A stretch of 32,166 nucleotides of DNA. Origin: a virus. Its lineage: Duplodnaviria > Caudoviricetes. The stretch covers positions 1 to 32,166 of IMG/VR virus record IMGVR_UViG_3300020570_000022; one strand, 5' to 3'. A program made the position numbers and the translations under genes. The notes below the pieces were generated by a model. It was not told where the DNA came from. It was given only the letters and a program-made list of their open reading frames with translations, and searched no databases. Positions within the stretch are counted from its first letter, which is position 1. Each line of letters begins with the position of its first letter. Positions 22,865-32,166 of this stretch are shown here, piece after piece.

Positions 22865-23542
22865 TTTCACTCGATCCTTAATCAGCCTTTCGATCTCTGG
22901 ATCACCCATCTGCTCCGGTGTTGGTGCAAACAATGCTCTCTTACGATTGTCTGTGGTTGTTGCCGGTTCAGACAAATAGTATACAGCGATTGAGTTTCTG
23001 GTTACATCAGCAGGACATTTGATTGGATCAGGCAGTCCATGCCATGAGCCTCTAGTGTCGAAGATCACTGCCCTGTTGAACTTCGGCTCAATGACCTTTG
23101 CAAGAGTTCTGCTGTCCTGGTACAGGCCCAACCCACCACCCCATTCCGGTTGCCATGCAGGAGACAGGTAAACAATAAGGTTAAGGCGACGTTGCAAATG
23201 TAGCTTTGGATGGATGTTGTAATCCAGGTGAACATTGAGCTTCCCTCCTCTGCTGTGCTGATGCCAGCCACCACCGTGTAGTCCTTGGTCAGCGAACAGA
23301 TCCTCGTCTACCATTGCCTCCAGGGACTGTGTGAACTTGTCGCTGGTTAGCCAAGAAAAGGTTTTGTATGTCTCTGGTGGGAACTTGTGCCAGTCGTTGC
23401 AGGTTCGCTTGACCTCTAGTGGATTGTCATACCGAAACCAGCATGGATCATCTGGCTGCGGAAACTCTTCTGCTAACTGATCTGGATTGGTGAAGAAGTC
23501 ATCGATCACACAATGCCAATATGGATTGTGGTTTACGATCAT
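22850..23542 (-). CDS. 2OG-Fe(II) oxygenase (prolyl 4-hydroxylase-like)
   Basis: LHGGG, HLD (HxD), RRLNLIVYL, WGGGL, PKFNRAVIF, SWHG, RNSIAVYY. Confidence 0.92.
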   Translation of the reverse strand: MIVNHNPYWHCVIDDFFTNPDQLAEEFPQPDDPCWFRYDNPLEVKRTCNDWHKFPPETYKTFSWLTSDKFTQSLEAMVDEDLFADQGLHGGGWHQHSRGGKLNVHLDYNIHPKLHLQRRLNLIVYLSPAWQPEWGGGLGLYQDSRTLAKVIEPKFNRAVIFDTRGSWHGLPDPIKCPADVTRNSIAVYYLSEPATTTDNRKRALFAPTPEQMGDPEIERLIKDRVKPMTR

Positions 23543-24630
23543 TCGACGTTCAAGATACGCACTGCTTCTTCTTCTCCAGGGAATACAACAAAGTTGCGAG
23601 TCCCCTTTCCTTTCTGCCTAGATTGCTCATCAAAATACTTAACACCAGGAACACCAAACTGCCTGAGTGCAGCCTCACCAGACCCGGTTTTCCCAGTCAG
23701 TGATTCCCATGTATTCAAAAACTGATTTACAGTTACATTCGGCCCATACAATAGTGACAAATCACCACCAAGATCATCTATCGCACTTTGTGGAAGCATT
23801 GACTTAGTTTGTTGGATTGCTTCTTTTACCTGTTTTGACTGTCTGCCGATTGGCTTATCCCAGTCAATCATCTTGCCAATCATATCGTCTGGGATGTCTA
23901 CTGTGTAAACAACACCAGACGCCTTTACTGGATTTAGCTTTTCTACTGAGTCAGCCAACCCAGAATATGTCCTTGCGTATTTTGACTCCCTGATTGTCTT
24001 TGCAATTGACTCAGGGTTTTCGCCCATTATTAGGTCTCTAACAATCTCGTTTGCTTTTGCCATATAAGCTGATTGCAATTGAGGCTGAACATTACCTGCG
24101 TTTTCAACCAAAGCATCAACTAGATCGCTTGATCTTAAGGGGCCAGCAGATGTTTCGTATTTATCAACAGCAGTTGTCGTTTTGTAATAATTTGCAATAT
24201 CAGGGGATTCGGCAAAGTAAATCCCATGCCCATACATTTGAGCACCCTCGCCACTTCCGATCTTGCTTGCATCAAACTTACTGAATCTGTATGGACTGCC
24301 ATGATAGCCAGTCAACGCAAGCAGACCAGCTTCCGGGTTAGCCTTCATCATCTGCACAGCATCAGCCAGCAAGCTCGGAACCTGAGCAGCAGCCTTAGCA
24401 CCAACGGAAAAAGCTCCTGCTGGCGCTCCGATCCCAGGCATACTGCCCAGTGCCTGACCAGTTCTGTACATATCTTCTGCCAACAATCCACCGTACTGAG
24501 GTTTGTCAAGCCCTAGATAACCTCTACCGATACCACCAGCAATAGCAGCAAAAGGCTCACCAATATTGCGCTGGTAAGCCCCGTAAGCCTGTTCTAGTCC
24601 CAATGCGCGGAGTAGCTGGCTGACATCCAT
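23539..24630 (-). CDS. ADP-ribosyltransferase-like protein (polyvalent-protein ART type), about 363 aa
   Basis: YHGS...F..FD..KIGSGEGAQMYGHGIYFAE N-half and GVPGVKY.D..SR...NFVVF C-half; Gly/Ala-rich N-terminal leader; ATG 24630 just after upstream stop. Confidence 0.7.
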   Translation of the reverse strand: MDVSQLLRALGLEQAYGAYQRNIGEPFAAIAGGIGRGYLGLDKPQYGGLLAEDMYRTGQALGSMPGIGAPAGAFSVGAKAAAQVPSLLADAVQMMKANPEAGLLALTGYHGSPYRFSKFDASKIGSGEGAQMYGHGIYFAESPDIANYYKTTTAVDKYETSAGPLRSSDLVDALVENAGNVQPQLQSAYMAKANEIVRDLIMGENPESIAKTIRESKYARTYSGLADSVEKLNPVKASGVVYTVDIPDDMIGKMIDWDKPIGRQSKQVKEAIQQTKSMLPQSAIDDLGGDLSLLYGPNVTVNQFLNTWESLTGKTGSGEAALRQFGVPGVKYFDEQSRQKGKGTRNFVVFPGEEEAVRILNVE

Positions 24631-24631
24631 G

Positions 24632-24928
24632 TCACTTGCCCTTATTGCGTTCGCTGATAGCTTTAGCTTTAGCCTTAGCGTCTGCCTTGGATGACGCACC
24701 CCAGGCTCTCAGTGACAGCAGCAGACGGGTTGGTTTTCCGTCCTTGAACTCTGGCCCAGGCATACCACCCATCCGAGCGAGGAATGATGCCCTGCGCGGA
24801 TTGTCACCAGACTTAACAGGAGCCTTCAGGTCTGATCCTGGATTGGCTCTTTCGTAGGACTTCCTACCAGCCTCGTTCAGCCCACCTTTCGGATTCTTGC
24901 CAGCCTTGCGCGTCCATGCAGCAGTCAT
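24632..24928 (-). CDS. Small basic protein (DUF6321-like)
   Basis: AWTRKAGKNPKGGLN..GRKSY...NPRRASFLARM...SLRAW. Confidence 0.75.
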   Translation of the reverse strand: MTAAWTRKAGKNPKGGLNEAGRKSYERANPGSDLKAPVKSGDNPRRASFLARMGGMPGPEFKDGKPTRLLLSLRAWGASSKADAKAKAKAISERNKGK

Positions 24929-25158
24929 CTGAACCTCGCTGTTTTCTTGGCAATCTTGTCTGGCTGCGGCACAAACTGCTTGCCCTGAGCCTTTCCTGCT
25001 CTCTTAGCCCTGGTTGTGGCTGCGTATTCCGCAGAAGACAGTGACTTGATTGCCTTCTCTGGCAGATACCGTTCACCCGTTTCGGACGATGGTTTGCCAG
25101 ACTTAGTGCGCCATTTCTGCGCTGTCCATTCCTTGAGACTGCGCTGAGAGGCTTTCAT
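24925..25158 (-). CDS. Small basic protein (resembles C-terminal half of DUF5872)
   Basis: QRSLKEWTAQKWRTKSGK...ERYLPEKAI..LS..EYAAT; ATGA overlaps on both sides. Confidence 0.75.
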   Translation of the reverse strand: MKASQRSLKEWTAQKWRTKSGKPSSETGERYLPEKAIKSLSSAEYAATTRAKRAGKAQGKQFVPQPDKIAKKTARFR

Positions 25159-25328
25159 TTGTACCCACCACCCTTGGCCTTGTACTGTTTAGCCAGCAGT
25201 TGAGCTTTCCTAGCTGACCATTGCCCAGCAGCAGTTCCCTGCGTGTTTGAAGCCTTGATCTGCTCAAACAACTTCTTCCGCATCCCAGGCTTAGTGTAGT
25301 TGCCAGCTTTGTTGACGGTGGACTTCAT
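25155..25328 (-). CDS. 57-aa basic protein (resembles N-terminal half of DUF5872)
   Basis: Not in ORF track: MKSTVNKAGNYTKPGMRKKLFEQIKASNTQGTAAGQWSARKAQLLAKQYKAKGGGYK; ATGA overlaps on both sides. Confidence 0.8.
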   Translation of the reverse strand: MKSTVNKAGNYTKPGMRKKLFEQIKASNTQGTAAGQWSARKAQLLAKQYKAKGGGYK

Positions 25329-25405
25329 TTCTTCTTTGGCAGACTAGGCGCGTTGTTCTTGGCTGGCTTAGGCTTTTTGTACTTCGGTTGATTGGTCGTT
25401 CCCAT
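25325..25405 (-). CDS. 26-aa Lys/Pro-rich peptide
   Basis: MGTTNQPKYKKPKPAKNNAPSLPKKK; GGAGG RBS; TGATG overlap upstream and ATGA downstream. Confidence 0.7.
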   Translation of the reverse strand: MGTTNQPKYKKPKPAKNNAPSLPKKK

Positions 25406-25752
25406 CAATCTTCCTCCATCATCTTTGCCATTTTGAGCATGATCTTATGCTTCTCAGTCATGCCCTTGACAGGCCCACCAGACAGCCAGCGATCACAGAC
25501 ATAGTCCTCTGAACACCGGAAGTCCCATCTAGCGCAATAGCCGATGTCGTCCTCGTCAACGATCTCCTGCATTTCCTCTGGCAGACCAGAAACCATGCAC
25601 TCGATCATCTCCGGGGTTTGCAGGAACCGCGCACAGTTCCCACAACTCATCTCATCGTCTTCTGCCTCGGTATAACCGGCCTTTGACTCAGCCTCGGCCT
25701 TGTTCCGATCATTGACCTTCTGATCCTGAGTTGAGACTGGACAACCGTTCAT
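25405..25752 (-). CDS. Acidic Cys-rich protein with HiPIP-like motif
   Basis: Y...CGNCARF...GYCARWDFRC....VCDRW; 7 Cys in 115 aa. Confidence 0.6.
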   Translation of the reverse strand: MNGCPVSTQDQKVNDRNKAEAESKAGYTEAEDDEMSCGNCARFLQTPEMIECMVSGLPEEMQEIVDEDDIGYCARWDFRCSEDYVCDRWLSGGPVKGMTEKHKIMLKMAKMMEED

Positions 25753-25907
25753 TTCGCCCTCTTTGGCATCTTTTTGTACGCAGACTTAGGGGTTGCCTCA
25801 ATCATCTCTTTTGCAACCTTCTGCGGGACTCCGGTCTGCTTTGCAACCTTCTTTGACCCGGCTGCTGCATACATGAGACGCTGCTGCTGCTTGCTGGTGA
25901 TCGGCAT
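25749..25907 (-). CDS. 52-aa basic protein
   Basis: Not in ORF track: MPITSKQQQRLMYAAAGSKKVAKQTGVPQKVAKEMIEATPKSAYKKMPKRAK; GAGG RBS; ATGA overlap downstream. Confidence 0.8.
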   Translation of the reverse strand: MPITSKQQQRLMYAAAGSKKVAKQTGVPQKVAKEMIEATPKSAYKKMPKRAK

Positions 25908-25908
25908 T

Positions 25909-26565
25909 TCAGTCCTCGACGATGTGTTCTAAGTGCCCAATACGGCCAATAACCCCCATGGTATCAACTTCTTGCACACTTGTCTCCGGCAGGAATTTGA
26001 ACAATCCATGCTCAATGTCAAAGACTTTTTTGTCCTTCCACTGCGACCAATGGAATGCCAGTGAGCGTTTCAGCGCCAGTTCCAATGTCGGAATCTGTGT
26101 GCTTGGTATTCCGTAACACCGAGTCATATACATATGTGATGCTCCACATTCCTCCAGGCTGAATCCTGTCGGAATCCTGCGCTTGAACACCAGCTTCTCC
26201 GGATCGTGCAAGCCTGGATTGAAGTCATCCGTCAACTGATAGCGACCACTCACTTTATAGTTGTTCGCCTCAGTCAACCAATCCAATGACCGGATCATCA
26301 CCTGCATCTCAATTGAGTTCTGAACGAACCCTCTTGGCAATCCACTGTCATGCGCCTCATGGATGAAATCGCAATCCCAGAACGGAACCAGATGAACCCT
26401 TCTTGGAATAGCCTCTAGGAAGGCTTTATCGGGCCTATAACGCGATGATTCTGTCAGGACGATGGAGGACAGCGGGAATCGCTTCCAGATGCTCTCAAGC
26501 GTTCCTAGAAGCTCATAGCAACGTCTTTCGTCGTTGTTGATCGCTGATGTGACCAAAAATCTCAT
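25909..26565 (-). CDS. Hypothetical protein, possible divergent GT-A glycosyltransferase
   Basis: Rossmann-like start FLVTSAIN...TLESI...IVLTESS, YKVSGRY and DIEH motifs; ATGA-coupled to the GT32 gene. Confidence 0.55.
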   Translation of the reverse strand: MRFLVTSAINNDERRCYELLGTLESIWKRFPLSSIVLTESSRYRPDKAFLEAIPRRVHLVPFWDCDFIHEAHDSGLPRGFVQNSIEMQVMIRSLDWLTEANNYKVSGRYQLTDDFNPGLHDPEKLVFKRRIPTGFSLEECGASHMYMTRCYGIPSTQIPTLELALKRSLAFHWSQWKDKKVFDIEHGLFKFLPETSVQEVDTMGVIGRIGHLEHIVED

Positions 26566-27173
26566 TTCCAGCCACCTCTTGTGCTTTTCCATTCCTGCGT
26601 TGCAAAAACCTGTCCTTTGCCCGTATAGCGGGAGCCAGCAAAGTGTTCAGGCAGGAAGTAATGGCTCGGATAAACAGTGAGATCGCTGAACTCATGCTCG
26701 TGCATTGTCTGAGTGATTCGTGCTGGCCCTGAGAACTCCCAGGCCATCCTATCGCCTGGAGTGTCGTTTTCCAGGTCTTTGATGATCTGACCAATGAACG
26801 GATGGCGCGGGACTGATCCGACCACACCGTTTGCGATCAGCCCTGGACGCTTTGTCTCTGACTCCCAACAGGCAAAGACATCCGGCTCAAGCAGCCAGTC
26901 CTCTAGTGGTCTGACGCACAGGCTGTCAGCGTCTAGCGCGATCCCGCCATGGTTGTAGAGGATCTCCCACCTCATACAGTCAGCAACACCGCAAAGCTCT
27001 CGCTGACTGAAGTGCCTCATGTGCTTGGCAAGGAGCCAACCTTCTTTTAGGTCGCTGTTACCCCAAACTTTGACTTTGTAGTTTGGATTCTTGTCGATCC
27101 ATGACTGGATCTCTGCGTCTGGTCGTTTGGACTCATCACCAACCCAGACAAAATGTAGTCGTTTCGGTATCAA
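26562..27173 (-). CDS. Glycosyltransferase family 32-like (DXD sugar-binding region)
   Basis: IPKRLHFVW, W...NPNY, AD..RWEILYNHGGIALDAD, SGP motifs; TTG start at 27173 with GGAGG 8 nt upstream. Confidence 0.9.
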   Translation of the reverse strand: MIPKRLHFVWVGDESKRPDAEIQSWIDKNPNYKVKVWGNSDLKEGWLLAKHMRHFSQRELCGVADCMRWEILYNHGGIALDADSLCVRPLEDWLLEPDVFACWESETKRPGLIANGVVGSVPRHPFIGQIIKDLENDTPGDRMAWEFSGPARITQTMHEHEFSDLTVYPSHYFLPEHFAGSRYTGKGQVFATQEWKSTRGGWK

Positions 27174-27199
27174 AAAAAGTGCCTCCACGCAGGAGGCAC
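27172..27199 (-). terminator. Intrinsic terminator at the early/late boundary
   Basis: Minus strand GTGCCTCC-TGCGT-GGAGGCAC-TTTTTTT: perfect 8-bp stem and U7. Confidence 0.9.
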
Positions 27200-27226
27200 A
27201 ACGGGGAGACACCCATGAAGGAGCAC
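27172..27226 (-). ncRNA. Candidate ~53-nt small RNA with two anti-Shine-Dalgarno motifs
   Basis: Lies between a putative extended -10 and the terminator; carries GCUCCUUC and UGUCUCCCC; transcription not demonstrated. Confidence 0.45.
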
Positions 27227-27229
27227 CCC

Positions 27230-27259
27230 ATTGTGCCAGATTTATCGGGCTGACGGAAA
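27230..27259 (-). promoter_or_regulatory. Putative late promoter
   Basis: TG-G-CACAAT extended -10 at 27238-27230; weak -35 TTTCCG at 18-nt spacing. Confidence 0.4.
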
Positions 27260-27424
27260 CAGCAGTTCTGGTTGCTTTTGTGCGCCTTTCACCAGCAACT
27301 CTTGCGCTGTCATCTCGACCATGTGCTGCCGACCATAACCCGGTGAGACAAACTTTCCACGCTTCAGCCAGTGTGGAACCCAGGTGATGCCTCTCAAAAC
27401 ATAACAGTCTGTGGCAAGTTTCAT
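27242..27424 (-). CDS. Hypothetical protein, 60 aa
   Basis: AAGGAG RBS; ATGA overlap with MazG-like stop. Confidence 0.7.
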   Translation of the reverse strand: MKLATDCYVLRGITWVPHWLKRGKFVSPGYGRQHMVEMTAQELLVKGAQKQPELLFPSAR

Positions 27425-27741
27425 ACGATCGTCTCCTTGATGAACACCCCGTTAGGCATCAGAGTGCCTTTCCGGTCTTTGATCTCCTTATACGCACCTT
27501 CCAGGCAGTCAACCATATCCAGCCCTGCCAACTCACAGAAGTTGATCATGCAAACCAGAACATCACCCACAGCATCAGCAGTCAGAGCAACATCTTTCTT
27601 GGCAATCCCGTCTGCAAGCTCACCCATCTCACTGACCATTTTCAGGAACTGAGCGTTAGCTGTTGAGTTTGGGATGATCTGTCTGGCCCGACTCCAGCCT
27701 ACAACTCGGACATAAAGCTCATCGAAAGACATTGTTGGCAT
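27421..27741 (-). CDS. MazG-like nucleotide pyrophosphohydrolase
   Basis: QFLKMVSEMGELA...DAVGDVLV...CLEGAYKEIKDRKG; GAAGGAG RBS. Confidence 0.9.
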   Translation of the reverse strand: MPTMSFDELYVRVVGWSRARQIIPNSTANAQFLKMVSEMGELADGIAKKDVALTADAVGDVLVCMINFCELAGLDMVDCLEGAYKEIKDRKGTLMPNGVFIKETIV

Positions 27742-27919
27742 GATCAGACTCCTTCTGGATCTTGAGAAACTGCGACATCAGTCTGGCTTGTGTTGCCATG
27801 TTTGCTAACAAACTTTGAGCTTCGTTGTAGTTTTTGTTCAAAAGTTGGATCCACAGATTTCCAGTCATCTGATTCAGGGTCAGCCAGTGCGACGACCAGT
27901 CCACCGGGTTGTTGAGCAT
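27719..27919 (-). CDS. 66-aa helical hypothetical protein overlapping the upstream gene in another frame
   Basis: MLNNPVDWSSHWLTLNQM...LLNKNYNEAQ..L..MATQARLM; amphipathic; resembles a recurring small phage protein; weak RBS. Confidence 0.5.
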   Translation of the reverse strand: MLNNPVDWSSHWLTLNQMTGNLWIQLLNKNYNEAQSLLANMATQARLMSQFLKIQKESDHANNVFR

Positions 27920-28244
27920 CCCAAAGTCGCTTGTTGAACCTAAAGGCTCGTCTGTCTTTTGGGTTGAATGATCCAATCTTTTTCTCCGTGTCATCAGACA
28001 TTGTTTTGAGAAGTGCTTTTCGGAAGTAACTTACCTCGATGTCCAGGTAGTGCAGATAACTTTCCAGTGCATCTGTCCACAGAAAATCGTGAGCCGTTAA
28101 GCAGTCAAATGTCAGTTTGAAGTGTTTTTCTCCAAATGGTTTGAATGGTTTTATGCAAGCGTCTCGCATTGCAGTAACAACGACAGCTGCAACCAATCGC
28201 TGTTCTGGGATGCCTTTGTAGGTCTGTTCAATTTCTGCTTCCAT
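27744..28244 (-). CDS. Hypothetical protein, 166 aa (possible transcription regulator)
   Basis: AAGGAG RBS before ATG 28244; PEQRLVAAVV..AMRDA motif. Confidence 0.7.
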   Translation of the reverse strand: MEAEIEQTYKGIPEQRLVAAVVVTAMRDACIKPFKPFGEKHFKLTFDCLTAHDFLWTDALESYLHYLDIEVSYFRKALLKTMSDDTEKKIGSFNPKDRRAFRFNKRLWDAQQPGGLVVALADPESDDWKSVDPTFEQKLQRSSKFVSKHGNTSQTDVAVSQDPEGV

Positions 28245-28440
28245 GAAACAACTCCTTCTTGATTTGTTCTGGGATTTTTGGCAGAGGGAACCAACCGACA
28301 AACCATTGGTCTGTCCCGTTCCACCAATCGATTGTTGATATTCCAGCCCGATTCAGCAACTGCACCTTTTTGTTGATCGGACAGGTGTCCATTGTTCTGA
28401 AGAACAGTGTGGAATCAGTTTCTGGATTGTCCTGTTGCAT
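28228..28440 (-). CDS. Small Trp-rich hypothetical protein (DUF551-like)
   Basis: TCP..KKVQLL...G.....W...W..W.PLP pattern; TGATG overlap. Confidence 0.7.
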   Translation of the reverse strand: MQQDNPETDSTLFFRTMDTCPINKKVQLLNRAGISTIDWWNGTDQWFVGWFPLPKIPEQIKKELFHGSRN

Positions 28441-28637
28441 CAGTCCCTCAACAATGCGCCGATCTCTGTTTTCTTTTGCGACTCTGCCTGTGCTATTGCA
28501 GCGCGTTCAGCAGCAACAACAAGGCTGGCAAACCTATCAAATACATTTACATACTCCAGCCAGTCCATGTTTTCAGAATCAAACCATTCGATTGCTTTTG
28601 ACTCGTACATCATTTGTTTAATTTGTTGCTTAGTCAT
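28440..28637 (-). CDS. Hypothetical protein, 65 aa
   Basis: GGGAG RBS; RFASLVVAAER motif frequent in phage early genes. Confidence 0.7.
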   Translation of the reverse strand: MTKQQIKQMMYESKAIEWFDSENMDWLEYVNVFDRFASLVVAAERAAIAQAESQKKTEIGALLRD

Positions 28638-28878
28638 TCTGATACTCCCTAACGCGATCCATCTGAGCGTCGATGTTCATCCAGTCTTTGTCGGTAGCTT
28701 TACGCTCCAACCACGGTGCTGGCCTACCTCTGCGGTCACACACTTGATAAGTTGCATCGCTCCATCCGTAGTAGTCCAGATCAGATGCAGCGTTGCGAGA
28801 GAAAGATCCATTGACTCGCTCATAGCTGACCAGCTTGACGATGCAGGGGATGCCTTGAATCCTGGTTTCAATTTCCAT
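28630..28878 (-). CDS. Hypothetical protein, 82 aa
   Basis: ATG 28878 in TAATG overlap with GGAG RBS; GIPC...SDLDYYG...DRRGRPAPWLERK motif. Confidence 0.75.
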   Translation of the reverse strand: MEIETRIQGIPCIVKLVSYERVNGSFSRNAASDLDYYGWSDATYQVCDRRGRPAPWLERKATDKDWMNIDAQMDRVREYQND

Positions 28879-29069
28879 TATCTTCGCTCCAGTTTTCCAT
28901 CGGGGTTTGCCGTTTCTGCTGTCAGTGACTGCGCTGGAACCTCGTATGTGGCCCAGGTTGCTCCGCAGTCCTGACATTTCTTCCTTCTCCAGATCCACCA
29001 GTATCGAGTGTCTTTTCTTGTTTCTAATGTCTTGGATGACCAGGAACCACACTCAACGCAGGTACTCAT
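28878..29069 (-). CDS. NrdR-N-like zinc-ribbon protein, 63 aa
   Basis: CVECG...LETR...RRKKCQDCG..W.TYE; no ATP-cone. Confidence 0.85.
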   Translation of the reverse strand: MSTCVECGSWSSKTLETRKDTRYWWIWRRKKCQDCGATWATYEVPAQSLTAETANPDGKLERR

Positions 29070-29232
29070 CCTCGACCTCTACCTGCAAGGACTCCAGAAC
29101 CACCTTGATGTTGATTTTGGCATCCAGGGTTGCCAAGAACGACAGAGTATCTGGCCGATCCTTGGTCATCTGGTTGTTTGCCCACTCGATTGCTTCCAGA
29201 GCTTTGGCTAGGGTTGATGCTTTGATCTTCAT
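29053..29232 (-). CDS. Hypothetical protein, 59 aa
   Basis: Not in ORF track: MKIKASTLAKALEAIEWANNQMTKDRPDTLSFLATLDAKINIKVVLESLQVEVEDEYLR; AAGGAG RBS. Confidence 0.75.
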   Translation of the reverse strand: MKIKASTLAKALEAIEWANNQMTKDRPDTLSFLATLDAKINIKVVLESLQVEVEDEYLR

Positions 29233-29246
29233 TTCTGCTCCTTGTT

Positions 29247-29298
29247 GGTCTCATCAGTGCCAGCTTGACTGGCAGACCCGCTTGCGCGGGTTTCGACC
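29247..29298 (-). ncRNA. Hammerhead ribozyme, type II
   Basis: Minus strand GGUC-GAA-ACCCGC-GCAA-GCGGGU-C-UGCCAG-UCAAG-CUGGCA-CUGAUGA-GACC: full core (GAAA, GUC, CUGAUGA), three perfect stems, stem II open. Confidence 0.95.
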
Positions 29299-29300
29299 TG

Positions 29301-29528
29301 TTAGGCAACCTTCCTGGCGTCGAAAGCAACTTTGGCGTCAAGCACCGCGGTATCGACCCAGTCATTGATCTGGTGCGGCACCCAGCCGTTCTTCTGCTGC
29401 TTGCCGCGGCTTGTGTTTGCCAGATGGCAGAAGGTGTTGCCATCGCGCTGTGCGCCAACGCCGATTACGCGCCAGACTTCGCCCATGTAAACGATGATCA
29501 GGTCGGTGTACTTTTCACGAGGTGTCAT
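29301..29528 (-). CDS. Hypothetical early protein, 75 aa
   Basis: AGGAG RBS after an A/C-rich leader; beta-rich sequence MTPREKYTDLIIVYMGEVWRVIGVG... Confidence 0.75.
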   Translation of the reverse strand: MTPREKYTDLIIVYMGEVWRVIGVGAQRDGNTFCHLANTSRGKQQKNGWVPHQINDWVDTAVLDAKVAFDARKVA

Positions 29529-29562
29529 GTCTGCTGCTCCTGTTGTGTGTGTCGATGGAGTG

Positions 29563-29611
29563 ACTTTACATGAACCTTGCAGTCCTGTGTGAACTTTCTG
29601 CAAAATATTTT
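29563..29611 (-). promoter_or_regulatory. Putative sigma70-type early promoter
   Basis: -10 TAAAGT (29568-29563); CACACA at 17 nt or TTCACA at 19 nt; AT-rich upstream tract; sits in a non-coding gap. Confidence 0.45.
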
Positions 29612-30157
29612 TTAATCGACAGCGACAGGTCTATAGATTTCCTTTATACCCAGCAGTTGACCCCTAGCTTCCGGGGTGCAGTCCCGTCCGTCTGTGGCGA
29701 TATGGTGATCCCAGATGTCTCTGAGCCTAGTGTCTTGCTTGACACCTCTCCAGAGCAGCATGACAGCCTGTGCTGACTTTGGGTGCTTTGCCCAATGCAA
29801 CGGATCGTATGCTGGTGTCCTGATCTGTGCTACAGCAGACTGGATGAGTTTTTGACCTTCTGGAGTGATCTCCTTGGACGGTGGTGGCAATGCGGTCTTA
29901 TGCTCTGGTCGGTTGAACTGCTTGCACAGACGGATGAACTCTGCAAGCGCAGGTGGCCACTCAGGAGGGTTCTCAGCTAAAGACGCCAGCGCAGCACGAA
30001 TGGCATCAGGGTTAGCTGATCGCAGGAACTGCTCCCAGGCTGCTGACAGATCAGACCATGATTGATCTGACACATTGAACACAGCTTTGGTCTTGTTGCT
30101 TCCAAACAGCGTCTCAAAACGGAACAGAATCCTCTGGAAGTACGGGAACTTGTCCAT
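29612..30157 (-). CDS. Replication protein P-like (helicase loader candidate)
   Basis: PEWPPALAEFIRLCK motif; directly downstream of initiator; GGAG RBS before ATG 30157. Confidence 0.65.
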   Translation of the reverse strand: MDKFPYFQRILFRFETLFGSNKTKAVFNVSDQSWSDLSAAWEQFLRSANPDAIRAALASLAENPPEWPPALAEFIRLCKQFNRPEHKTALPPPSKEITPEGQKLIQSAVAQIRTPAYDPLHWAKHPKSAQAVMLLWRGVKQDTRLRDIWDHHIATDGRDCTPEARGQLLGIKEIYRPVAVD

Positions 30158-30872
30158 TGCTCGTCTCCATGTCGATGGTGTTGTCAAAACCTTGCATCCT
30201 GCGGCTCCAACCGTCCTTAGATCCTTTTGCTATCCAATCAGCAGAAAAGCCCTGCCAACCTCTTGCACAAGCCATCTCAAGCGCAGCATCCAGCGACATA
30301 CCAGCCTTGCTAGCCTCGTTCCTTACCGTCCTTACAACACGGTCAGTCACAATCGCCTTCTTCTGCCTTCTCAATGCAATCCAATCATTCCAGACTTCTT
30401 CTCTAACATCACTTGGACACACAAGCGCACTTGTGCGCTCTCTTTCTTTTACATTGGTTAATGGTTCTTGGTTATTGGTTACTGGTTTATGGTTATTGGT
30501 TAGTTGAACATCTGTTGAGCCTGTGTCTAACACTTGTTGAACAGGTGTTGAACTAGTGTTCTTCTTGCGTTCAGCGGATGCCTTGCCAGCGTTGCTTCTC
30601 TTGTTGACAATAGCCTTGTACTCAGCGATTTCCTTGTCGCATCTTGTATGCTTCCAAGCACCGTCTTCTAGCCTGAAGTAAGACTCCAAAATAAGCCTGA
30701 CCGTACCAGCGTCTATCCCGACCTGGAAGGCCAGAACATCAACTTTGTCTGGGAGTGGGCGCTCACTGTCGTAGTACATCCAAAGCAAACGCAGATAGGC
30801 CATTGACTGAGCATCTGTCAGCCTCGATGTGGCCTTTAGGAAGTCACCAATGTGGTGCTGGTAGTAATGCAA
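30114..30872 (-). CDS. DUF1376/YdaU-family replication initiator
   Basis: HYYQHHIGDF...T..L.....AY.RLL..YY..E.PLP N-domain; repeat-encoded linker; W.DW...R..KKA...GWQGF..DW C-domain; TTG start with AGGAG RBS. Confidence 0.88.
   Translation of the reverse strand: MHYYQHHIGDFLKATSRLTDAQSMAYLRLLWMYYDSERPLPDKVDVLAFQVGIDAGTVRLILESYFRLEDGAWKHTRCDKEIAEYKAIVNKRSNAGKASAERKKNTSSTPVQQVLDTGSTDVQLTNNHKPVTNNQEPLTNVKERERTSALVCPSDVREEVWNDWIALRRQKKAIVTDRVVRTVRNEASKAGMSLDAALEMACARGWQGFSADWIAKGSKDGWSRRMQGFDNTIDMETSNGQVPVLPEDSVPF
30424..30563. repeat. Probable replication origin (iterons) inside initiator gene
   Basis: Six 11-bp-period GTTGAAC-like units starting 30503, 30514, 30525, 30536, 30547, 30558; seven TGGTTnn heptamers 30455-30503; pyrimidine tract; AGCGCAC-TT-GTGCGCT palindrome 30424-30439. 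Confidence 0.8.
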
Positions 30873-31008
30873 AACAGTCTCCTCTGGAGGACAACCTCAG
30901 GGTGAGAATTCCGAGGTGGGCCACCCAGTGCAGGGCAGATGTACGGGCCTGAAGCCGTCCGCTAGAGGAGACTGTTCCAAGCCCACCTTATGCGCTTCTC
31001 ACGGCGCA
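30870..31008 (-). promoter_or_regulatory. Structured 5' leader of initiator gene with alternative pairings
   Basis: 13-bp perfect inverted repeat 30873-30885/30964-30976 covering the RBS; 8-bp 30914-30921/30981-30988; 7-bp 30902-30908/30996-31002; 5' hairpin 30991-31008. Confidence 0.8.
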
Positions 31009-31013
31009 GAACA

Positions 31014-31042
31014 ATCTTACAATGCTCATCGACACATTGCAA
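31014..31042 (-). promoter_or_regulatory. Sigma70-type promoter for the replication genes
   Basis: TTGCAA (31042-31037), 17 nt, TAAGAT (31019-31014); predicted start near 31007, at the leader's first hairpin. Confidence 0.75.
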
Positions 31043-31349
31043 AAAACGGGTCATACACACTCCGCGCTTTCTGCTTCTCCCTCCACCGACGCTTGACCAG
31101 CGTGTTTGGCTCTCGGGGTGGCCTGGGAAGGTCTTTACCCTGTCCAAACCGGTACATAGGCAGCTTTATCCTGCCGTTTAGGACAACTTCCCAATCAGCT
31201 ATGTAGAGCATCTTTCTCTGGTGCATACGCCTGAGAATCGACCGACAGAACTCCACAGACAGACCTGTCTGCCTTGCAAGCTCCTTGGCTGTCATCGGCT
31301 CCCGCTGCACCAACACAATCAGGTCAAGCAATGAGTCTGGCAGACTCAC
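31026..31349 (-). CDS. Winged helix-turn-helix DNA-binding protein
   Basis: PMTAKELARQTGLSVEFCRSILRRMHQRKMLYIADW; GTG 31349 gives GTGA overlap; start uncertain. Confidence 0.75.
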   Translation of the reverse strand: MSLPDSLLDLIVLVQREPMTAKELARQTGLSVEFCRSILRRMHQRKMLYIADWEVVLNGRIKLPMYRFGQGKDLPRPPREPNTLVKRRWREKQKARSVYDPFFAMCR

Positions 31350-31630
31350 TTTGTGCCTACCAAGTTTTGCTCGAACAACTCCCGAATCGTTTTTCTCCAT
31401 GCTGCTTCCCACGCTTCCTTCCTTTCAATGTGATCCAGTTTTGATCCCTGATCAATTTCATAGTGACAAGACACACACAGAGCAGCGACATAGCAGTCGT
31501 GAGCCTTGATAGCCATGCCTTTGCCGTACTCTGACCAGTTAGCATGAGCAGCTTGAGTCTCGTTCTCCTTGCCGCACAACTGACAAGGCAGACTGGCGAC
31601 TGCTCTAAGCAGTGGTTTGTTTCTGTACAC
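31346..31630 (-). CDS. Zinc-binding HNH-like protein (DUF968/DUF1364-like)
   Basis: LPCQLCG...QAAH.N...GKGM..KAHD...AALC..CH..ID. Confidence 0.8.
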   Translation of the reverse strand: MYRNKPLLRAVASLPCQLCGKENETQAAHANWSEYGKGMAIKAHDCYVAALCVSCHYEIDQGSKLDHIERKEAWEAAWRKTIRELFEQNLVGTK

Positions 31631-31892
31631 GATGCCACCTCATGATTTCAGCTTGCAACACTTCTCGACCACCCATCCCGCGAGCCTTCTCCACTAGCTC
31701 CAGGTAGGCTCTCCTGCGCTCTTTTTTCATCCGCAACACAAACTGAGCCTCGCAAAACAACACATATGCCCTGGAGTGCAGACCGACTATCGTTCCGTCT
31801 GGTAAATGCTTGGCAACTGCATGATCGTGTCTCTCTCCACACGCATCGCAGACAAGGATTCCGTCCAGGTCAAGCCTCGTTCCGTCGCCCAT
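31605..31892 (-). CDS. Hypothetical protein, about 95 aa
   Basis: CDACG..H then CEAQFVL...RRAYLELVEKARG motif; start uncertain, overlaps NinB-like 3' end. Confidence 0.6.
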   Translation of the reverse strand: MGDGTRLDLDGILVCDACGERHDHAVAKHLPDGTIVGLHSRAYVLFCEAQFVLRMKKERRRAYLELVEKARGMGGREVLQAEIMRWHRVQKQTTA

Positions 31893-32166
31893 GCAATCAC
31901 CTGCTCCACATACTCCGAGAATGCCGCGGTCGTCATCCCTGTCGTTGTCGGCTCCAGTTCGACCATCTGCCCACCTGGAAGCTCTTTCATCCGTCCAGGA
32001 AGCAACAGAGTCTTGAAGTAGGTGTGCCATGTATCAGGATGATAAGTTTGACCACCCGGCATGACCTGCTCACTGATCGCTTGCAAGACTGCCCAATAGA
32101 GCGAGTTCTGAGCGGTTGAACGGTTAGGTTTGGAGATCGACACCACCCAACCCGGTTTCGCGGCTT
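31787..32166 (-). CDS. ninB: NinB-like recombination protein, 5'-truncated by window edge
   Basis: RSTAQNSLYWAVLQAISEQ...W...FK...TTGMT..FSEYVEQV.AW..ERG; frame open to the edge. Confidence 0.85.
   Translation of the reverse strand, partial: AAKPGWVVSISKPNRSTAQNSLYWAVLQAISEQVMPGGQTYHPDTWHTYFKTLLLPGRMKELPGGQMVELEPTTTGMTTAAFSEYVEQVIAWATERGLTWTESLSAMRVERDTIMQLPSIYQTER

Follow-up and report, generated by a model that had tools for sequence, protein, structure and literature searches.

The late leaders of lambdoid phages (pR'-tR'; StxS, lambda 6S RNA, P22 P-late/t-late) lie at the boundary of early and late genes, where a sigma70-type promoter and a terminator yield a short RNA; Q lies upstream, and the initial transcribed region holds a -10-like pause element. 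The P22 late leader measures ~60 nt (record NC_002371). According to PMC7547250, StxS is an Hfq-bound trans regulator that stems from a terminated late leader, arises by processing of a longer leader and is dispensable for phage propagation; for lambda 6S RNA one early-operon partner is described in bioRxiv 10.1101/2024.10.31.621285. Bacterial hosts, in turn, encode small RNAs (sRNAs) with a CUCC seed that repress ribosome binding sites (RBSs). The kin of RF02278 comprise ncS03, ncS05, ncS27, ncS62 and bdhR1 of Burkholderia cenocepacia and S17S of Bordetella pertussis, and S17S represses translation at RBSs (PMC5688073 and PMC11722255; PMC12197685 is a further reference on the known kin). Overexpression of ncS27 slows growth (PMC5688073). 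The sRNAs alphaR8, MmgR and SisA-D (RF00519, suhB), an alphaproteobacterial family (PMC12559287), combine a weak 5' hairpin, an anti-Shine-Dalgarno (anti-SD) stretch and a terminator. Finally, OppZ and CarZ of Vibrio cholerae are operon 3'-end RNAs that use the common terminator and repress translation of their own transcript; they are released by RNase E and act at specific sites (PMC7398697).

In the main texts of non-subscription journals we found neither a late-leader RNA of a phage whose anti-SD seed goes together with an SD difference between early and late genes nor a phage copy of RF02278, of which the supplements of PMC4603805, PMC5688073 and PMC11722255 may list prophage examples. 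Late-leader sRNAs and CUCC-seed sRNAs are both known; what these searches did not turn up is their combination with a phase-linked SD bias. A preliminary description of this DNA had held that no switch of this form was described, which is too strong in view of StxS, lambda 6S RNA and the CUCC-seed sRNAs of Betaproteobacteria.

The locus lies in the virus record IMGVR_UViG_3300020570_000022, whose whole stretch of 32,166 bases is called the window below. Its genes are on the minus strand, with an early right arm (ninB, HNH, DUF1376 initiator, small ORFs, MazG) followed by glycosyltransferase, terminase, portal, scaffold, capsid and tail genes. In complete relatives, which are 35-37 kb long, a short leftward arm is added, and the window is therefore probably incomplete. 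Judged from sequence, the host is likely a betaproteobacterium, because the portal has 53% identity to that of Methylophilales phage Venkman and a Betaproteobacteria-1 RNA (RF02932, 96.8 bits) is present in a relative (L403:349-467), ~640 nt upstream of the element. An Rfam scan of the entire window returned zero families above cut-off and no match in the element region. The features at the early/late boundary are:

27744 to 28244, minus strand: candidate late regulator, a conserved helical protein encoded where Q would lie
27242 to 27424, minus strand: last early ORF, 60 aa, ending with its stop codon 4 nt short of the long stem, its RBS with 6-bp pairing to seed 2
27254 to 27259, minus strand: weak -35 candidate TTTCCG, separated from the -10 by an 18-nt spacer and lying in the final codons of the 60-aa ORF
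27230 to 27238, minus strand: extended -10, TG-g-CACAAT, letters confirmed
27195 to 27237, minus strand: predicted 12-bp stem of the -10 region (27237-27226) with 27206-27195 (z -6.7), in read-through transcripts only, competing with the terminator
27172 to 27224, minus strand: RNA of ~53 nt predicted from its fold, with an unpaired seed at the 5' end, a weak CU-loop hairpin and the terminator; start placed by spacing
27217 to 27224, minus strand: seed 1, GCUCCUUC, containing the family-invariant CUCCU, predicted unpaired 0.97
27203 to 27211, minus strand: seed 2, UGUCUCCCC, its first 7 nt aligning with the 5' end of the RF02278 consensus
27179 to 27199, minus strand: intrinsic terminator stem-loop, 8-bp GC-rich stem, U7 at 27178-27172
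26562 to 27173, minus strand: first late gene, DXD glycosyltransferase with TTG start (PF04488, E 1.7e-8)

The preliminary description was right about the letters and minus-strand placement of the extended -10, the two seeds and the terminator. In the window the -35 and -10 together outscore 96% of 300 shuffles (p=0.04), and the promoter stays below the 9-of-12 threshold in a promoter scan of 24000-32166; at the -35 position relatives read TAGACA, TCGACA, TTGCAA, TTGTCA or TAGACT. The terminator hairpin is the top match in a terminator scan of 24000-32166. A start at the G at 27224 gives a 53-nt RNA. For the 55-nt form the folding z score is -4.2, with 0 of 200 shuffles equally good, and the UGUCUC of seed 2 lies in the loop of the predicted weak hairpin. 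Three points had been missed before: the terminator 3' arm contains GGAGG (27186-27182) and is the SD of the next gene (start TTG 27173), the -10 forms an arm of a predicted antiterminator (21 of 56 copies, see below), and seed 2 is the seed of RF02278/S17S. Hammerhead-like words just 3' of the terminator were rejected as glycosyltransferase coding sequence.

With the RF02278 sRNAs (~55-67 nt) the unit shares an unpaired 5' CU seed, a CU-rich loop and an intrinsic terminator. The consensus start of that family, UGUCUCC, equals seed 2 and the 5' end of most relatives; it is internal in the window RNA, whereas GUCUCCU is mostly at the predicted 5' end in relatives. Two hairpins, the CU loop first and the terminator second, are predicted for the 55-nt window form as in RF02278, while the 5' part is too short for the first hairpin in most relatives and the RF02278 middle hairpin is absent from most phage copies. 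The RF02278 sRNAs differ further in being host chromosomal genes, and the phage terminator also masks the SD of a late gene. The RF02278 covariance model gave no match at E up to 10 in window 27130-27280 (cut-off 50 bits) and a single one among 16 family loci (L371, 22.3 bits, cut-off 50); host RF02278 copies score 54-69 bits in four of five genomes. Among local Rfam matches, RF00519 is the closest to the window RNA (18.4 bits, below the cut-off of 41), which lacks the family decamer UUUCCUCCCU (PMC12559287). The window RNA is a member of neither RF02278 nor RF00519. An MmgR/alphaR8-like sRNA with the decamer was seen in the control phage C72C1 (L803:28754-28822, minus strand, 31.4 bits).

The comparison with lambdoid leaders rests on the sigma70-type promoter and terminator at the early/late boundary and the short RNA. 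The leaders of lambda and P22 differ in having no CUCCU in their first 30 nt, and those phages are without an early/late SD bias; a Q homologue was not identified here, and no -10-like pause element is apparent by eye in the family leaders. Like OppZ and CarZ, the RNA comes from an operon 3' end, with the upstream stop close to the seed in 49/56 copies; unlike them, the unit has a promoter-like site of its own and a generic anti-SD seed. It would operate like RF02278/S17S and is placed like pR'-tR', and is a proven member of neither.

We estimate a probability of roughly 45% that the leader RNA is a trans-acting anti-SD sRNA whose selected targets include early phage mRNAs, late genes escaping; when action mainly on the host is included, a trans-acting anti-SD RNA overall is probable. 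The unit is likely the late promoter of the phage together with its early/late terminator. Judging from the layout, host sigma70 polymerase would fire this promoter and halt at the hairpin, as at pR'-tR', and the same hairpin would terminate the early operon and keep the SD of the first late gene hidden. Once released, the RNA of ~53 nt would present the seed at its 5' end, would probably load onto Hfq via hairpin and U-tail like the host S17S/RF02278 RNAs, and is predicted to mask GGAG-type RBSs of early phage genes and likely of host mRNAs too. Most late start regions are without GGAG, which would let those genes escape. A phage factor, with the 28244-27744 protein as candidate, would let polymerase through the terminator into the late genes, and in the window lineage the -10/antiterminator stem of read-through transcripts may likewise permit passage. 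Because a sigma70 promoter would already fire when infection begins, the timing needs accumulation or activation. If true, an element of ~70 bp would, without any protein, turn ribosomes away from early phage and host mRNAs and towards the late genes, phage timing being otherwise explained almost wholly by transcription factors. The sorting of mRNAs by the SD half used would leave a footprint that can be counted in genomes, phages would have borrowed the seed of a conserved regulator of Betaproteobacteria, and the short RNAs of antiterminated late promoters would gain a function, an open question since lambda 6S RNA (PMC7547250).

Searches with the glycosyltransferase and the terminase gave 193 matches with 91 distinct upstream regions, one of them from the window's own record; the element-bearing relatives are one family of uncultured freshwater phages. 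A terminator lies within 40 nt of the glycosyltransferase start in 56 of the 91 regions, and CUCCU is present within 35 nt before the stem in all 56, compared with 9 of 105 other terminators, 7 of these 9 being additional instances of the unit; of the 35 regions that lack a terminator, one contains CTCC. The conservation of the CUCC seed, named as a check in the preliminary description, is thereby borne out. CUCCU is the exact anti-SD word and its flanks vary among lineages, with GUCUCCU as the commonest seed form (29/56). Two seeds, proposed from the window, are not the general rule: most lineages have one, and CUCCU is doubled in the window clade and in L358. Since the -10 calling demanded A2 and T6, the promoter was tested against shuffles; the score is at least 8 in 51/56 and better than 95% of 300 shuffles in 42/56. 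The distance from the -10 to the seed is 6-9 nt in 48/56 copies, which puts the seed at the RNA 5' end, and 12-19 nt in 8/56. The seed is predicted to be at least 90% unpaired in 43/56, and the terminator base to be closed (at least 0.8) in 53/56 short forms. The start codon directly follows the U-tract in 52/56, the last early ORF stops at -27 to +6 nt relative to the seed in 49/56, and the unit sits at the early/late boundary in 10 of 10 element genomes. On a quick tree of 89 proteins the element label changes six times, with at least three losses within the main clade. We regard it as very likely that the unit is real and selected.

In more distant phages (L380, L388, L385, L386, L391 and L176, ~600-770 nt before the glycosyltransferase, and L205) the boundary-terminator leaders share CAGTTGCC, which stands instead of, or besides, CUCCU and possibly defines a second seed family. 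In six element-less lineages (L341, L290, L350, L390, L316, L367) the glycosyltransferase lacks its own start codon where one normally stands and is seemingly fused to an upstream small ORF.

For the SD classes, genes were taken from our own caller, which uses a generic anti-SD in start choice, and GGAG was counted at -18 to -4; the first late gene was excluded because its SD is the terminator arm. GGAG is present in 11/15 early and 5/33 late start regions of the window and in 106/210 early and 51/332 late regions of the ten element genomes, a pooled comparison that is not independent because the ten genomes are one family. For GGAGA the counts are 41/210 and 6/332. Early exceeds late in all ten genomes, with p<0.05 in seven, and with genes of at least 60 aa only, six of ten are still at p up to 0.05. 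Gene families that are mostly GGAG make up 8/13 of the early and 2/27 of the late ones. The RBS words that the preliminary description had quoted match the sequence, both at the presumed early targets (29232, 29528, 28244, 27741 and 28878; GGAGAC at 30872, 30157 and 27424) and at the late genes (portal, scaffold, MCP, 15406, 14974, 6598, 5465, 4917) and their exceptions (16676, 1571, terS, 25405, 27173). Its naming of 30157 as a P-like loader found no Pfam or PHROG match, the ORF at 25405 measures merely 26 aa, and the distinct late GAGG class it implied is rejected: GAGG is equally frequent early (64/210) and late (100/332), so that late genes are GGAG-poor rather than GAGG-rich. The early genes at 31630 and 29069 use GAGGT, and terS retains GGAG in 6 of 7 genomes.

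The expectation of an SD-class bias in relatives held, GGAG being early-rich and late-poor, and the bias is absent in 10 of 11 annotated control phages, namely lambda, P22, phiM5, MW202710, C72C1, MW202520 and the Betaproteobacteria phages BPP-1, P26218, KS9 and P26059B. As these last four are unbiased, avoidance of host sRNAs as the sole cause of the bias is weakened. The exception, Venkman, is weakly biased (17/36 vs 7/33) with no element detected; with our own caller Venkman (genes of at least 30 aa) and C72C1 (at least 60 aa) reach p<0.05. MW202481, taken as a twelfth control, turned out to carry the unit after a gene annotated Q and to be strongly biased (18/30 vs 5/32), and MW202462, with a variant leader, gives 11/25 vs 7/35 (p=0.085). 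Among four unrelated genomes with a GUCUCCU-terminator unit elsewhere, classed as early or late by strand blocks, two are biased (16/25 vs 4/36, 16/35 vs 4/28), one is not (8/24 vs 6/34) and one shows a reversed trend (14/44 vs 15/28). Against a necessity of the element stand the losses, at least three, and G008 (100% complete), which keeps the bias (10/25 vs 6/42) with no element in our scans. The anatomy of the unit, its position, the invariance of CUCCU and the early/late GGAG difference are established at the level of sequence.

The bias in G008 and Venkman without a detected element is also what would be expected if the unit acted in cis only, as a late promoter and terminator in which CUCCU slows promoter escape for antiterminator loading or shifts the hairpin register, the RNA being a by-product and the SD bias having another cause. 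The position of the seed 6-9 nt behind the -10 in 48/56 copies would suit such a role, as would the CAGTTGCC of other lineages at the same place and the G-rich 3' arms, with all of which CUCC could pair. However, the word is CUCCU in every case and never just some pyrimidine stretch, its distance from the -10 is 12-19 nt in 8/56 copies, the window clade and L358 have it twice, the late leaders of lambda and P22 lack it in their first 30 nt, and a seed paired with the 3' arm would leave the SD unfreed. We consider a purely cis-acting unit unlikely.

The pairing between seeds and targets bears on the choice of targets by a trans-acting RNA. In the window, contiguous pairing of at least 6 bp is found for 7/15 early and 2/33 late genes. 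Pairing with early sites is short (6-7 bp; 7 bp for seed 1 with the AAGGAG sites), and the strongest duplex in the window is with the late gene 16676. Measured by contiguous pairing, the gap between early and late genes is wider than with shuffled seeds in only 5 of 10 genomes, and plain duplex energies tell early and late apart at p<0.05 in just 2 of 10. Across the ten genomes a genome's own seeds are no better than foreign ones at separating the two classes. The target-specific pairing of the preliminary description is not supported by this comparison, and seed-target coevolution was not seen.

This missing specificity within phage genomes is in line with a mimic of the host UGUCUCCU sRNAs (S17S/RF02278) that hits transporter and catabolic mRNAs of the host or competes for Hfq; late GGAG avoidance would then be an escape from collateral repression and early shut-off incidental. 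GUCUCCU, the commonest form (29/56), matches the RF02278 5' end, the same seed plus terminator in cell genomes occurs mostly in Betaproteobacteria (first 80 of 122 loci), and overexpressed ncS27 slows growth (PMC5688073). Against a host-directed mimic, the early GGAG rate (106/210) is at the high end compared with controls, more than neutral, and seed 1 of the window deviates from the host seed and fits the phage AAGGAG sites with 7 bp. Action mainly on the host is in our judgement doubtful, and the preferred reading keeps early phage mRNAs among the selected targets.

The 12-bp stem may add a second layer in some lineages. In the read-through form of the window the predicted pairing of the terminator base falls from 0.99 to 0.21. 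A complement of the own -10 region is present in 21/56 copies, 7 in the window clade and 14 in a GATAAT clade that is not its sister on the quick tree, and in these 21 the predicted terminator base pairing falls from 0.5-1.0 to 0-0.21 upon read-through. Close relatives within the window clade show an inserted U-A pair and a U.G to C-G change in the stem; two-sided pair changes were not seen inside this clade, and two stem pairs differ on both sides between the two clades. The -10 stem is a lineage feature and not the core of the unit. Together with the upstream stop a few bases before the 5' arm, the fall in terminator pairing in two non-sister clades and the two pairs that differ two-sidedly between them are what a translation-coupled attenuator would predict: the stem would block the terminator and loosen the first late SD unless a ribosome finishing the 60-aa ORF covers the 5' arm, and an sRNA silencing the last early genes could trigger it. 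Yet the stem is missing in 35/56 copies, and attenuation is thus not the core function; no pair changes two-sidedly within the window clade, and in G004, of the second clade, the RBS of the last ORF lacks GGAG. We consider this account improbable.

The preferred reading of a trans-acting RNA can be extended to an SD-code switch from early to late genes. The leader would copy the seed of a host master sRNA and silence all GGAG mRNAs, whether early phage or host ones, and the late operon would have lost its GGAG sites so as to remain immune; in the window lineage, silencing of the last early ORFs would free the antiterminator built from the -10, and the RNA would time its own replacement by the late transcript. 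This full version is possible, on the unlikely side.

The candidate late regulator (28244-27744) has 306 relatives and a structure model with pLDDT 94, and a homologue lies upstream in 29 of the 32 element loci with more than 1.5 kb of upstream DNA (reverse-strand matches skipped). A Pfam family common to its members was not found (125 members), and Foldseek found no solved structure that matches at E up to 0.001. The ESM Atlas returned unnamed viral clusters only, a viral library two uncharacterized phage proteins, and VIA-align a best Z of 5.2 (shallower model). The gene annotated Q in MW202481 has a weak sigma region 4 match only and is unrelated to this protein. As the candidate is without a family or solved-fold match, we infer the passage of polymerase through the terminator.

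On the plus strand of the window an ATG follows GGAGAC and opens 12 codons, and in three of the four unrelated genomes the generic match runs antisense to the leader or RBS of a gene on the other strand, so that CUCC words might be RBSs of opposite-strand genes read backwards. An ORF of at least 40 aa behind AGGAG is found in only 4/50 element copies, which largely refutes this origin, and the flanking genes and the U-tract share the strand of the seed; we find it scarcely credible. The GUCUCCU-terminator units antisense to an early gene leader or RBS are at G017:24283-24329, G019:16868-16911 and G020:37019-37059; as the G017 unit has a promoter-like site, they may be cis-antisense RNAs.

Pattern scans over wider material were set aside. 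A first scan with the seed pair gave 118 stretches, of which 4 are true relatives and the remainder chance or repeat-coding DNA. A generic seed-plus-terminator scan gave ~260 stretches against ~130 with a scrambled seed and is not counted as evidence; the control was flawed because 41/80 of its matches continued with C and so contained CUCC. Promoter scores hardly separate the generic set from the control (15/91 vs 11/84), and its matches occur in many contexts beyond late boundaries and score weakly to RF02278 and suhB.

Several further elements were seen in the window, all on the minus strand. A likely internal early promoter (29560-29530) precedes gene 29528, and its first transcribed bases include CTCC. 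Directly before the AAGGAG site of gene 29232 lies a candidate type II hammerhead ribozyme (29240-29298; Rfam RF02276, 33.2 bits vs cut-off 37), found in nine distinct versions including that of the window, with changes in all three stems and two-sided ones in stem II. Self-cleavage would give an early mRNA that begins just before the site that the small RNA is predicted to mask. A hairpin with a U-run after the capsid gene (17026-17001) overlaps the start of the next gene, and in relatives a hairpin is present at this position. A late-region protein (23539-24630) with a weak ADP-ribosyltransferase match (PF18760, E 1.7e-5, below cut-off) adjoins a 2OG-Fe(II) oxygenase in a variable slot before terS.
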